From the NCBI GenBank assembly GCA_947449005.1, contig CANFPP010000009.1, forward strand, positions 796 through 64,795: a DNA stretch of 64,000 bases, read 5' to 3'. The DNA comes from Holosporales bacterium. Its GTDB lineage: Bacteria; Pseudomonadota; Alphaproteobacteria; Paracaedibacterales; CANFPP01. Both the position numbers and the translations under genes were made by a program. The notes under the pieces are model-generated. The model had not been told where the DNA came from, did not search any database, and worked only from the letters and a program-made list of their open reading frames with translations. Below, piece after piece: positions 24,755 to 42,759 of this stretch (position 1 is its first letter; each line of letters opens with the position of its first letter).

Positions 24755-27700
24755 CTAATTTTTAAGATCTCTTAATTGTACTCCAGGCGTAATATCAAGA
24801 GATTTTGGTAAATGCAGATTTCTTAGTCCCTTTAAAAAGTTTATTAGTTTAGGAGAGACAATCACGATTTGAGCAGGATATTTTAAAGGAAGGGTTAATA
24901 TATACTTATTATCACTTTTGTAAGTTTTAACCGCAGAGGAATCTATTAATTTAAATATACTCCAAAATCCCTCAAAATGGAGGGAGTAGTCTTGCTGGGT
25001 AAAATCAGTACCTGAAATTTCGCAGCTATTATTTTGAAGGTTAGAGTCTGACCAATTAAACTTTTTATATTGAGATGGACCATGACGATAAGTGAATGCT
25101 TCTCCAGCATAAGAAAAAGATAATGAAGCGAACTTTGGATCCATCGTAAATGACTCGATCTGAAACGACACCATTATTTTATTTGTTTGATCAATAAATT
25201 CATCCTGAAAGCTAAGTGCTGATTGAATCTTTTGTAATGACGCTGTTGTTGCATAGAAGGAAGGTAGAACCGCATTTTCTGTACCATCTTTTAGAAGAGT
25301 GGGGCTGTGCTGCAGCATATCTAGAAAGGGCTTTAGATATGTTGTAAAAAATACTTTAAGAGTTCCATTTTCTCCAAATATTTCTTTAAAGGTTGCTAAT
25401 TCCAGATCCTTTTGGGATTTTTCAAGAAAGGGATAGGTTTGACAAAACTCCTTCTCATAAGTCTCATACACATCTGTTTTCCACGTTGTTTCAATATATT
25501 GAGAGGCATTTTGAATTACATATATCCAAGTCCGTTCAATGATTTCATATATCCAGTCTTTAAGAGGAGAGGGGAGCTTGCTAGCAGTTTCTTTAAGGGC
25601 ATAGATTGGATTTTTGACATCACCCTCTTGATAAGATTTTGCATAGAGAAAACAAGCTTTATTAGTATCAGGGGCATTAATAAGAATGGTTAGCGATTGT
25701 GCAAATTGCCCAATATTAGTGATGGTGCTTTGAAGTGTTACCAATCCTTTGTCTTGAGTAAGCATTGCAAATTCACAGAGTTCTTTAAATTGAGCCTCTG
25801 ATGATAAGGGGGAAATTGAGGCAATTTCACGGTTAATAAACGTTATTATTTTTAATAAACCTTCATTTTTGCCTGTTAGTAAATTTAGGATGTTGGCAAT
25901 ATCTTTAAGTGATGTTGTTGGTGCAATCCGAATAGTCTGTAAGAAATCTTGCCACTGAGTTAAAAAATCATGAAAATATAAATCTGTCAGCTCTTTATGA
26001 ATAACTTCCTTGTTGTAGGTAACAGGATTCGTTGTGATATCTAAGCCGAGATGTAGATCCTCGAGGAGTATGCGCTCTATAAACGAGGCACTTTTTTCTT
26101 TTATAATATGCGCATAGCCATTTTCTGTATAAAAAGATGGGATAAGTGTCTGGTTTTCTTTAAAGATCTGCCTAAAATAGGGATCCCATGCATTGATTGG
26201 TATTAAAAATCTAGGTTCTTGGCTGTCTGAATAAGCTTTTAAGCTTTGATAAATGCGATCAAGTGGATTTGATAATTTTAAAATATCTTGCTTCTTTTTA
26301 ACTAAATCAGGATCTATCGGATGGTAAGGAAGATCTTTACTTAATACTCTATCTAAGTACCACATTAATTTCGCGCAATCCTCCGGAGTATCTTTGTAAA
26401 GATTCCTAATATCTTCAGAAAAAACCTCTCGTACTATTTTATGTTCAATGGTCGATTTTTTTCCCAACGCTAAATAGACTTTAAGAAGCTTAATAAGGTT
26501 TTCAGTAGGGGCTTGCTCATTTTCAAGAAGAATTTCAAGACGTTTGTAGAGAAGGGGGATATATAACTTTATAATAGCTTTTTCAAGTATTTCTTCCATA
26601 GCATCTTGAACCTCACCTAACGTGTACTGGGTGTAAGGCCGATACCACTTTTCCTCTTTTCTATCAGTGTCCACAGTTATTCGAATCGGCTCAAGGAAAG
26701 GCAATACATCTACGAGGCTTTCCTTTGACTCCGCTGCGGCTTCTTTATTGGGGAACAATGAGAGTGTTTCAACGATGTTTTCGGTGTCATTGTGAATAGC
26801 AATATCCGACAAAAAGCAGGAAAATACAAAATATATAAAAAGTGAAATTGCTGAAAAAATACTTACTTGACGTGCCCATTGCGCAAATTTATATCGCCGT
26901 TGTTTATTTACGATAAAGGGGATGCCTCCAAAAATATGTTTTTTAAAAAACCCTTTTAAAAAATATGTCTTTGTTTGGGATTCTTGTGTGAGTGTTTGCT
27001 GGTTTTTTCTAAATAGTTTTTGTAGTGAAAAAAAATAATAATCAGTTGGTTGAGAGTAAAATGATGCAGCACTTGAAAAATAAAGTCCGAACAAAGTGTA
27101 TGGCTTTTCGGGACCTGCACCACTAAAAAGTGTTTTCAAGAAGTTTTGCAAAGTATTTTTCATGCAATAAAGCTGACGCGGAAAATTAATTGCAGAACCA
27201 AGAGTTAATGAGTCACTTTCAGAGGAAATGCCGTGAGTTGCGTTGGTTTGCAGTTGACTAATAAAATGATCGTGCTTTATAGAAAATACGCGTTGAATTG
27301 AGGCAGGATCTGACTCTTGAATTAAATAACCCAGAGGACATTCTCGTTCTGCATGTGTTAGTGCTGAAAAATATTCACAAAAGCCATCAATTTGGTCCAT
27401 TTTGCTAAGCAGGAGATAGATAGGTACGCGTATTTTTAGGCTTTGGTATAAATTGAAGAGGTATATTTGTAGCGTTTGGGTATACGTGACTTGATCTTCT
27501 TCTGTTAGCGATAAAAGATAAGGTGCATCTTGTACTAGGATAATGCCGTGAAGAGCGTGGCAAAATTGGTTACGTTTTAAAATACTTAGTAGGAGTGTTA
27601 AGATAGTTGTATTCTTAGTAGTTGTATCAATTTCTAAAAAAATACCTTCTTGAGTTAACCACCAATTTCCTGCATTTATTTTTTTTAATTCTGCTAAAAT

Positions 27701-28156
27701 ATTTTGAACTGTTGTATCAAGCGTAGCAGGAGTCATTCCAGCTTTTTGTAGTATAGATGTTTTTCCTGATGAGGGAGATCCCATAATGAGAAACAAAGGC
27801 ACTTGAGAGGTGTAAACTTTTTTGTGGCTATGCCACAATGATTGTTTTTGAAGAGTTTTAATTAACAGTGAAATGTTTTTCTTAAGTGCTTGAGGGTCGA
27901 CGCTTTCTTCAGATTTTTCATCTGTTAATTTATTAATTATTTTTTGATTGGCATATTTATCCAATAAAAAACAACTAATAATTTTGATAATCCAAAATAT
28001 AAATATAAAGCTAATGATTCCTAATCGAGTGGAAGCTGAAGCTAAAAAGGCAGAGCCATTTATTGTAATAAAAGGTCCTGCAAACCAAATTAATAAGCTG
28101 ATTAAAATTAAACCAATTAGGTTTGCAATTTCAGATATATTAAGAGTTTTTTTCAT
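24755..28156 (-). CDS. tssM: T6SS membrane complex protein TssM (IcmF)
   Basis: 1133 aa, three N-terminal TM segments, Walker A 'GSPSSGKTSIL', long IcmF-like periplasmic C-terminus. Sits next to tssL. Confidence 0.9.
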   Translation of the reverse strand: MKKTLNISEIANLIGLILISLLIWFAGPFITINGSAFLASASTRLGIISFIFIFWIIKIISCFLLDKYANQKIINKLTDEKSEESVDPQALKKNISLLIKTLQKQSLWHSHKKVYTSQVPLFLIMGSPSSGKTSILQKAGMTPATLDTTVQNILAELKKINAGNWWLTQEGIFLEIDTTTKNTTILTLLLSILKRNQFCHALHGIILVQDAPYLLSLTEEDQVTYTQTLQIYLFNLYQSLKIRVPIYLLLSKMDQIDGFCEYFSALTHAERECPLGYLIQESDPASIQRVFSIKHDHFISQLQTNATHGISSESDSLTLGSAINFPRQLYCMKNTLQNFLKTLFSGAGPEKPYTLFGLYFSSAASFYSQPTDYYFFSLQKLFRKNQQTLTQESQTKTYFLKGFFKKHIFGGIPFIVNKQRRYKFAQWARQVSIFSAISLFIYFVFSCFLSDIAIHNDTENIVETLSLFPNKEAAAESKESLVDVLPFLEPIRITVDTDRKEEKWYRPYTQYTLGEVQDAMEEILEKAIIKLYIPLLYKRLEILLENEQAPTENLIKLLKVYLALGKKSTIEHKIVREVFSEDIRNLYKDTPEDCAKLMWYLDRVLSKDLPYHPIDPDLVKKKQDILKLSNPLDRIYQSLKAYSDSQEPRFLIPINAWDPYFRQIFKENQTLIPSFYTENGYAHIIKEKSASFIERILLEDLHLGLDITTNPVTYNKEVIHKELTDLYFHDFLTQWQDFLQTIRIAPTTSLKDIANILNLLTGKNEGLLKIITFINREIASISPLSSEAQFKELCEFAMLTQDKGLVTLQSTITNIGQFAQSLTILINAPDTNKACFLYAKSYQEGDVKNPIYALKETASKLPSPLKDWIYEIIERTWIYVIQNASQYIETTWKTDVYETYEKEFCQTYPFLEKSQKDLELATFKEIFGENGTLKVFFTTYLKPFLDMLQHSPTLLKDGTENAVLPSFYATTASLQKIQSALSFQDEFIDQTNKIMVSFQIESFTMDPKFASLSFSYAGEAFTYRHGPSQYKKFNWSDSNLQNNSCEISGTDFTQQDYSLHFEGFWSIFKLIDSSAVKTYKSDNKYILTLPLKYPAQIVIVSPKLINFLKGLRNLHLPKSLDITPGVQLRDLKN

Positions 28157-28165
28157 CCTGTATTC

Positions 28166-41835: not shown

Positions 41836-41860
41836 AAACAGAATATAGGTAGGGCAGGGA

Positions 41861-42469
41861 ATGAACACACTTCTGCAGTGGGTGGATAAAAAGGGAGATA
41901 AACCCTTTCCAAATATGATGTCTGAAAAAGCAACAGATGTGTGTGCATCATTTACGTTTTTTGAATCACTACCTGAGTCATTAAAAGGCCCAGAACTTAC
42001 CACAGAAATTTTTTTAAGAGAACTCATAAATAAAGATCATTATGCCGATGCTCTACAGTTTATCGCTCATGGTTTAGAAAAACACGAAGCTATTCTGTGG
42101 GCATATAAATGTGTGAATGCGCATAAAAAGGACCAATCTCCAAAGTTAGATAAGATAAAGCAATGGCTAGAAGATCCAACAGAAGAAGGACGTTTGCAAT
42201 GTAACCAAACCGATGGTTTTGATGATCCTTTAACCTGGCTAAGCTTAGCTGTTTTTTGGAGTGGAGGGAACATTTCAACCCAACCAGATGTTACGATAGA
42301 GTCGCCAACAACTCTCAGTGCAACTGGAGTAGCAATGACTCTTATCTTATCAGTAATCAGCAATGATCCAGAGATTATGAATGAGAGATATGCTGATTTT
42401 TTAAAGCGCGGTATAGAAGAATTCGCTATGGAAACAACTTCTTCATGTGATGTTAAGGAGATTGCATAA
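41861..42469 (+). CDS. Conserved-looking T6SS accessory protein between vgrG and PAAR (function unknown)
   Basis: 202 aa. The stop overlaps the PAAR ATG (taATGg at 42467-42471). 'ADALQFIAHGLEKHEAILWAYKCV' and 'WLSLAVFWSGGNIS' resemble an uncharacterised family I recall from vgrG-PAAR loci. I do not assert a family name. Confidence 0.4.
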   Translation: MNTLLQWVDKKGDKPFPNMMSEKATDVCASFTFFESLPESLKGPELTTEIFLRELINKDHYADALQFIAHGLEKHEAILWAYKCVNAHKKDQSPKLDKIKQWLEDPTEEGRLQCNQTDGFDDPLTWLSLAVFWSGGNISTQPDVTIESPTTLSATGVAMTLILSVISNDPEIMNERYADFLKRGIEEFAMETTSSCDVKEIA

Positions 42470-42759
42470 TGGGAATGCCGGCGGCTCGAATTGCTGATCC
42501 TCATGTTTGTCCAATGGTAACGGGAATTATCCCTCATGTCGGAGGACCTATACTACCCCCCGGTTGCCCCACTGTTTTAATTGGTAATCTTCCAGCTGCA
42601 CGCATGGGCGACATGGCAGTTTGTGTGGGCCCCCCCGATTCAATTATTCTAGGAAGCCCGACGGTGCTGATAGGCAGTATGCCAGCAGCACGATTGGGAG
42701 ATACAACAGCGCATGGTGGAAGTATTGTTATGGGCTGCCCAACAGTGTTGATTGGGTGA
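42469..42759 (+). CDS. PAAR-domain spike-tip protein (minimal, 96 aa)
   Basis: Three PAAR motifs: 'MPAARIAD', 'LPAARMGD', 'MPAARLGD'. No toxin extension. Confidence 0.93.
   Translation: MGMPAARIADPHVCPMVTGIIPHVGGPILPPGCPTVLIGNLPAARMGDMAVCVGPPDSIILGSPTVLIGSMPAARLGDTTAHGGSIVMGCPTVLIG

Follow-up and report, generated by a model that had tools for sequence, protein, structure and literature searches.

A compact type VI secretion gene cluster of the two-sheath-gene lineage, lacking ClpV, in a Holosporales bacterium

We studied a 64,000-nucleotide stretch of DNA (hereafter the window) from a Holosporales bacterium (GenBank assembly GCA_947449005.1), which carries a compact gene cluster for a type VI secretion system (T6SS). 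The window spans positions 796 to 64795 of a 65,306-bp contig, which runs on for 795 and 511 bp past the window edges, and the assembly (G000; 1.9 Mb in 74 contigs) was estimated to be 91% complete. Its RpsA was 78% identical to that of "Candidatus Paracaedibacter sp.", 74% to those of Paracaedibacteraceae metagenome-assembled genomes (MAGs) and 73% to that of Ca. Finniella; judged by these identities, the host genome is that of a Paracaedibacteraceae-like member of Holosporales, a protist symbiont. The T6SS cluster forms one contiguous 18-kb locus, in which neighboring genes overlap or lie a few bases apart in an operon-like manner, and its G+C content of 34-39% is the same as that of the remaining window.

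Genes were called from a listing of open reading frames (ORFs) combined with Pfam and NCBIfam profile searches. The negative strand carries twelve genes in the order tssA-B-C-impD-E-F-G-orfX-J-K-L-M: tssA (38126-39205; 359 aa, ImpA_N domain, TIGR03363; E-value 3e-30), tssB for the small sheath subunit (37593-38102; 169 aa; 1e-56), tssC1 for the canonical large sheath subunit (36072-37580; 502 aa), tssC2 for a sheath paralogue of the ImpD/TssC40 type (34705-36015; 424-436 aa), tssE for the gp25-like baseplate subunit (34241-34708), tssF (32420-34225; 4e-167), tssG (31296-32456; 1e-83), the orphan accessory gene orfX (30760-31305; 181 aa), tssJ for the outer-membrane lipoprotein (30296-30763; 2e-28, with lipobox LLGC), tssK (28910-30262; 5e-122), tssL (28166-28906; 246 aa; DotU domain, 2e-43) and tssM (24755-28156; 1133 aa; IcmF domains, 5e-40). 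The two VipB-type sheath proteins matched their family at 1e-128 and 6e-96, and the probable start of tssC2 at 35979 fits the 424-aa product on record. TssL is of the short form, i.e., it has the DotU domain without a peptidoglycan-binding extension. A divergent unit on the positive strand contains hcp for the tube protein (39286-39813; probable true start ATG at 39334, MAIYMQIEG..., giving 159 aa), vgrG for the spike (39883-41835; 650 aa; gpD, gp5 OB and gp5_C domains), a gene for a DUF6931 protein (41861-42469; 202 aa, all-helical) and the gene of a 96-aa PAAR tip protein (42469-42759). The canonical T6SS-i set, which comprises 13 core components (TssA-M) plus PAAR, was thus encoded in one locus with matches above cut-off, TssH alone being absent. 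The initial annotation, made from the letters alone, had read the locus as supplying every core component but the sheath-recycling ATPase ClpV (TssH), with a TssJ lipoprotein, a VgrG devoid of a C-terminal effector extension and a minimal PAAR, and the 16 genes bore this out.

A search for the missing ATPase in the whole assembly yielded a single Hsp100 unfoldase, a full-length ClpB encoded on contig C62 next to a purC-like gene (TIGR03346, 1369 bits, above cut-off, spanning positions 1-851). This ClpB was also the only protein in the assembly picked up by the ClpV model TIGR03345, with 825 bits and under the 885 cut-off, and when the assembly was searched by tblastn with genuine ClpV sequences from four sources (Pseudoalteromonas, Rhizobium, two relatives), clpB alone was returned, at 40-42% identity over the AAA+ part. 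A clpV remnant was likewise sought in the window by tblastn with sister-lineage ClpV, which gave noise only. Profile searches found no match to TagF_N or FHA anywhere in the assembly, and tblastn found none to TagJ, PppA or T6SS-type PpkA; tssC2 and tssE overlap by 4 bp, with no TagJ (ImpE) gene between them. The absence of ClpV, TagF and PpkA/PppA noted earlier for the window therefore extends to the assembly as a whole, where FHA is missing too. It had been stated beforehand that clpV and regulatory genes just outside the window at the same locus would speak against this reading; since non-T6SS genes border the cluster for ~20 kb on each side, that is not the arrangement found. The one Pkinase gene of the genome, on contig C54, has no FHA partner. 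Its 584-aa product (C54:4981-6033) contains a Ser/Thr kinase domain of the eukaryote type, in a genome that encodes no FHA-domain protein, and is more likely to act on the host as an effector than to regulate the T6SS.

The two adjacent sheath genes were compared with their homologues. Those of tssC2 are annotated 'ImpD' by JGI, and among 80 named genome loci detected with the ImpD profile a canonical tssC stood directly ahead of impD in every locus that extended upstream; these upstream copies scored ~650-720 bits to the window TssC1. The tandem tssC-impD pair is annotated in Rhizobium sp. K102, Azospirillum argentinense and Pseudoalteromonas sp. THAF3, and the T6SS clade that bears ImpD comprises Rhizobium, Azospirillum, Pseudoalteromonas and Planctomycetota. 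In a joint tree the canonical copies were monophyletic (support 99) and so were the ImpD copies (100), the two groups were sisters (87), and the window copies fell inside both; here and below, support values are SH-aLRT (approximate likelihood-ratio test) values from quick searches. Because the copies form two monophyletic sister clades and the tandem pair occurs throughout the lineage, the pair is ordinary for it, and the tree is consistent with a single ancient duplication from which this T6SS lineage started. By this phylogeny, the second tssC is an ancient ImpD/TssC40 paralogue and not a local or recent duplicate. Of the "duplicated sheath gene" proposed in the initial annotation, the two tandem tssC genes stand, whereas duplication within this locus does not. 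The Agrobacterium counterparts, TssC41 and TssC40, are non-redundant, and TssC40 is required for Hcp secretion and not for TssB stability (PMC3702570). The window ImpD has both VipB domains and no N-terminal extension. We considered its short N-terminus as a correlate of ClpV loss and rejected the idea, for it is also seen in ClpV-bearing Rhizobium and Azospirillum.

A second T6SS was detected in the same genome by tblastn with the window T6SS proteins. It is split among separate loci (L007-L010): tssK-L-M-A at C6:21-29 kb, tssF-G at C8:31.7-34.5 kb, tssB-C-orf186-tssE at C15:16.6-20.3 kb and vgrG at C42:2.3-4.3 kb. All its ORFs were intact and it had no ClpV; its TssB is extended (299 aa), and in its TssM (1457 aa) the IcmF N-terminal domain was the only one recognised. 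Such a dispersed arrangement is conserved in Bodocaedibacteraceae, Paracaedibacteraceae and Caedimonadaceae (PMC8163844), and a review ranks it as the key, "non-standard" secretion system of the group (PMC11909080). The compact cluster in the window is an additional system beside the dispersed one. The two share the host lineage and the lack of ClpV; the dispersed type occupies at least four loci (tssG-F, tssB-C-hcp, tssK-L-M-A and ywqK-vgrG), whereas the window system is compact, confined to a single locus, and includes canonical Hcp, TssJ and PAAR plus the ImpD paralogue. Dispersed-type TssC was found in all but one of 40 genomes of the same order, and the ImpD-type paralogue was restricted to two of 41, the genome studied here and G009.

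Placement of the compact system was made relative to solved structures and named loci only. The window TssC1 scored 540 bits against the sheath of PDB entry 9n4v and 511 against TssC1 of the P. aeruginosa H1 system (5n8n), followed by the remoter sheaths of M. xanthus (347), V. cholerae (329) and Francisella (IglB, 3j9o; 195). TssC trees, built in line with the phylogeny proposed earlier as a check, put the window inside a two-TssC clade (98) that was sister to a clade of 9n4v and the Holosporales dispersed-type TssC, with H1 TssC1 as the next branch. Window TssC1 and the dispersed-type TssC were 52% identical and lay in these sister clades; on the tree, both T6SSs of this genome belong to an H1-like supergroup, on separate branches. 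In the SecReT6 numbering, Agrobacterium belongs to subtype i5 and H1 to i3.

ClpV is the rule around ImpD-type loci: TssH lay within the flanks in 36 of the 42 that had full 10-kb flanks. The six exceptions were all from Planctomycetota and all had TagJ, and in two of three checked genome-wide ClpV was encoded elsewhere. Inside the two-TssC clade, the window formed a subclade in the TssC1 tree (98) with L012 (a metagenome contig), L014 (a 2.28-Mb contig) and L079 (a locus in a MAG), joined in the ImpD tree (96) by G009. L012 had the same 16-gene order as the window, with TssC1 86-88% identical (two measures) and TssB 85% identical. Both L012 and L014 presented the same architecture without ClpV and TagJ at the locus; for L014, a locus-level search found no ClpV. 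The Holosporales genome G009, 99% complete, carried ImpD together with compact-type TssK, TssF and TssG, and its only Hsp100 of the two kinds was ClpB, with no ClpV. L079, the nearest ClpV-bearing relative, ends inside tssF, and another contig of the same MAG carries the last part of tssF, followed by tssG, clpV (above cut-off with 1195 bits), tssK, tssL and tssM. Its clpV thus sits between tssG and tssK, the slot taken by orfX-tssJ in the window. As the L079 genome carries clpV within the cluster order, the loss is derived: on this comparison of gene order and trees, the window, L012 and G009 came to be without ClpV by secondary loss in a small sublineage, and lack of ClpV is not a feature of the subtype. 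We infer that TagJ and the Fha/PpkA/PppA/TagF phosphorylation switch were likewise lost secondarily in this sublineage.

The 16 ORFs were intact in both the window and L012, and synonymous sites between them were saturated (dS at least 1.8 or undefined). Values of dN/dS were 0.07-0.19 for the core genes (0.10 for ImpD), 0.26 for DUF6931 and 0.35 for orfX; all 16 genes are under purifying selection. Intact frames and low dN/dS at saturated dS argue for continued function after ClpV loss. TssC1 has retained its N-terminal helix, the counterpart of the ClpV-binding helix of VipB. In alignments it paired with the V. cholerae VipB helix SLLDEIMAQTR and with its equivalent in ClpV-bearing relatives. 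The helix was near-invariant between the window and L012 and the 20 residues preceding it had diverged, a pattern that fits continued recognition by an unfoldase and fits a purely structural role as well.

The loss of ClpV was also surveyed across the order. ClpV above cut-off was present in 13 of 41 genomes (families f5, f6, f7 and part of f10) and ClpB only in the other 28, while sheath genes were found in 40 of the 41. Our literature search found no paper on ClpV/TssH in Holosporales. In family f6 (G013, G027, G032) clpB was located beside tssA, and in f7 (G021, G028, G033) within ~5 kb of tssC and clpV, the distance from clpB to a T6SS module being about 0.5-7 kb in these two families. This linkage hints that clpB and the modules may be functionally connected; it was recognised post hoc and does not hold in all members. 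A further candidate for replacing ClpV, an AAA protease similar to LonB/LonC whose gene adjoins tssA of the dispersed T6SS, was discarded as the adjacency was not kept in 40 relatives. As a separate observation, in family f8 (G007, G015, G022, G029, G034, G039) and in G035 the open frames that gave the TssC match were 643-676 aa long, suggesting that TssB and TssC are fused in a single-chain sheath gene in these ClpV-less genomes. For the order at large, we propose tentatively, and with less than even confidence, that housekeeping ClpB is a shared sheath-disassembly ATPase, so that ClpV would be dispensable and lost repeatedly, and that in the present genome it serves two distinct T6SSs.

The nearest known systems are those of the Rhizobium/Agrobacterium imp type, for which Rhizobium sp. 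K102 (plasmid pRSpK102d), Azospirillum argentinense (p4) and Pseudoalteromonas sp. THAF3 served as comparators. They share with the window the backbone tssA-B-C-impD-...-E-F-G-...-K-L-M and the divergent hcp/vgrG genes, and their TssC1 and ImpD fall in the same clades. In Rhizobium sp. K102 the order is tssH / tssA-B-C-C'-tagJ-E-F-G-fha-K-L-M. The comparators have ClpV/TssH, an FHA protein, TagF, a Ser/Thr kinase, usually a PP2C phosphatase and a long-form TssL, none of which the window has; TagJ, also missing in the window, is present in most of them but not in Azospirillum, and is frequent rather than universal in the lineage. The window in turn differs from them by a short-form TssL and by the placing of TssJ and the orphan orfX, which lie between tssG and tssK. 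The likeness to the imp operon pointed out in the initial annotation holds for the backbone, as the K102 order and the TssC clades attest, but the gene order given there omitted TagJ/ImpE, which is also missing here.

Two other comparisons bear on the lack of ClpV. The Francisella T6SS-ii resembles the window system in having no ClpV, in residing in an intracellular bacterium and in leaving ClpB as the only candidate unfoldase. Its IglA/IglB sheath is of an unrelated lineage (195 bits to IglB as against 540 and 511 to the T6SS-i sheaths), it has no canonical TssJ or PAAR, and the role of ClpB has been demonstrated there and would apply to the window by analogy. Campylobacter jejuni and Helicobacter hepaticus have a complete T6SS-i cluster without ClpV, like the gene set of the window, and the system has been shown to be functional, C. 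jejuni being able to secrete with it (PMC3667781); in contrast to that of the window, their system belongs to another T6SS-i lineage, has one tssC only and has retained the FHA protein TagH. The window T6SS is a stripped-down member of the Rhizobium/Agrobacterium-type lineage and not a new kind of machine.

We read the cluster as a functional contractile T6SS of the two-sheath-gene (ImpC/ImpD) lineage that has lost its accessory layer, recycles its sheath by means of ClpB and is controlled at transcription, a reading to which we give a probability of roughly 0.6. From the established roles of the component families, TssJ, TssL and TssM would form the envelope complex, TssE, F, G and K with VgrG and PAAR the baseplate and spike, and Hcp the tube; TssB and TssC1 would build the sheath, with TssC2 as an extra, non-redundant structural part. 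The contracted sheath would most likely be disassembled by the housekeeping full-length ClpB, the only candidate for this task that the genome encodes, as in Francisella, where ClpB disassembles contracted sheaths and its N-domain is needed for secretion and not for heat-shock survival, the E. coli N-domain being able to substitute (PMC5481754; PMC7182274). The initial annotation had weighed a borrowed ClpB against working without dedicated recycling, and we judge that these were the right alternatives. Post-translational triggering of the Agrobacterium or Pseudomonas kind would be unavailable since there is no FHA protein, kinase, phosphatase or TagF, and firing would probably be controlled at transcription. 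LuxR-type genes flank the cluster on both sides, namely a regulator with an autoinducer-binding domain that is convergent with tssM (23971-24699, positive strand) and a second gene past PAAR (45451-46299, negative strand). Two genes for LuxI-type synthases are located elsewhere in the genome (C4:56383-56763 and C1:28736-29197), and by its gene content the symbiont appears to retain acyl-homoserine-lactone signalling.

Several points weigh against this reading. The clpB gene is on a short contig without T6SS genes, the contact between ClpB and the sheath is carried over from Francisella, and the TssC1 helix may be conserved for purely structural reasons. Quorum-type control of the cluster by LuxR is a reasonable guess from gene position, the activity of the compact T6SS is predicted from its genes, and no effectors were identified for it.

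The alternative that survives best is a system that functions without active recycling, each apparatus giving one shot and its contracted sheath being cleared slowly by dilution or general proteolysis. A slow-growing intracellular symbiont might find such a single-shot mode enough, V. cholerae ClpV is described, as quoted in the C. jejuni study, as not strictly essential for T6SS activity (PMC3667781), C. jejuni itself secretes without ClpV, and no member of the ClpV-less sublineage has a T6SS-linked unfoldase gene. However, Francisella, the only dissected ClpV-less case with a known answer, uses ClpB, the N-terminal handle of TssC1 is still conserved, and clpB adjoins T6SS modules in two related families. 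We rank the ClpB model first and the single-shot mode second, as an appreciable but minority possibility. A less probable alternative, which we consider improbable, is that clpV is present in the ~9% of this genome that is unassembled, so that the architecture would be split and not ClpV-less. Such a position is possible in an assembly of 91% completeness in 74 contigs, and it has precedents: the DNA available around impD had no clpV in L053, L079 and Kolteria, where the gene was elsewhere in the genome (in L079 on the separate contig that apparently continues the same cluster). Yet the window cluster is contiguous and complete with no clpV or remnant, the 99% complete G009 has the same system and no ClpV, and 28 of the 41 genomes of the order are without it. 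It is very unlikely that the cluster no longer fires, being a recent acquisition or a relic in decay for which ClpV loss was the first step of erosion: the host genome is that of a reduced symbiont and some decay of T6SS genes is seen in a frameshifted extra hcp and a PAAR fragment on contig C12, but 16 of 16 ORFs are intact and under purifying selection at saturated synonymous sites, gene order is conserved in L012 and the G+C content matches that of the genome.

That orphan hcp (C12:22841-23331, negative strand) is of the compact type and 70% identical to the window Hcp, with a frameshift at a CCCCAAAA run; it is either a pseudogene or an assembly error. The short PAAR-like fragment follows the broken hcp, and a 1320-aa ORF lies just upstream.

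The accessory genes of the cluster were inspected in turn. OrfX had no Pfam or NCBIfam match and four homologues among 1.84 billion representative proteins, all of ~175-190 aa; a weak counterpart precedes tssJ in L014. Its AF2 model was confident for a small beta module (residues 2-9 with 45-81) and had a disordered tail, the protein has a conserved KEDKLAFLYQN motif, and in a Foldseek comparison of the model with the PDB no hit fell below E 0.28. Because orfX lies between tssG and tssJ/K, we considered a degenerate FHA/TagH protein, which was not supported (hhalign probability 0.1 to TagH), and descent from ClpV was rejected, since tblastn gave noise only and the predicted fold is beta as against the helical Clp N-domain. 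The DUF6931 gene is found between vgrG and PAAR in the window, L012, L014, L053 and L079, and homologues lie near T6SS genes in Azospirillum (L085, L104) and L072. Considered as a possible known adaptor fold, this protein gave a confident model of a helical domain (pLDDT 80, pTM 0.81) with no PDB match, and a word-index homologue search returned the query itself only; it may be a candidate spike accessory, adaptor or small cargo. Non-covalent loading of cargo, as had been proposed, is reasonable and would be on VgrG, PAAR or Hcp. In L014, tssG is followed (14799-20962) by ORFs of 982 and 911 aa, with no Pfam match, and by an RHS-repeat protein of 5266 aa; they may be genes for cargo of this T6SS sublineage.

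Next to the cluster on the PAAR side lie two orphan ORFs (42839-44616, negative strand, convergent with PAAR), of 285 aa (42839-43696) and 247 aa (43873-44616), then the second LuxR-type gene and a giant Sel1-repeat protein gene. The two orphans matched no family, did not resemble each other and had no homologue in the related loci examined; they are possibly cargo or immunity genes, or unrelated. On the tssM side, the neighbors in the window are plsY, cmk, rpsA, an HU/IHF-type gene (ihfB-like), accD, a redoxin gene and the LuxR-type regulator.

T6SSs without ClpV and the substitution of ClpB for it are already known elsewhere, and the general picture of how a T6SS works is unchanged by our results. 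In Holosporales symbionts the T6SS is considered the leading candidate for a machine of host interaction, and it has been described there only as the dispersed system. What the window adds is that some Holosporales have a second, compact and canonical-looking T6SS of the Rhizobium type, that this T6SS persists under purifying selection although ClpV, TagJ and the entire phosphorylation switch are gone, and that loss of ClpV is widespread in the order. The series from ClpV-bearing sister loci to ClpV-less descendants offers a natural comparison for the replacement of ClpV and for the role of ImpD/TssC40. If the linkage of clpB to T6SS modules reflects function, endosymbionts would in general be able to streamline their T6SS through substitution by ClpB, which would then be no oddity of Francisella.

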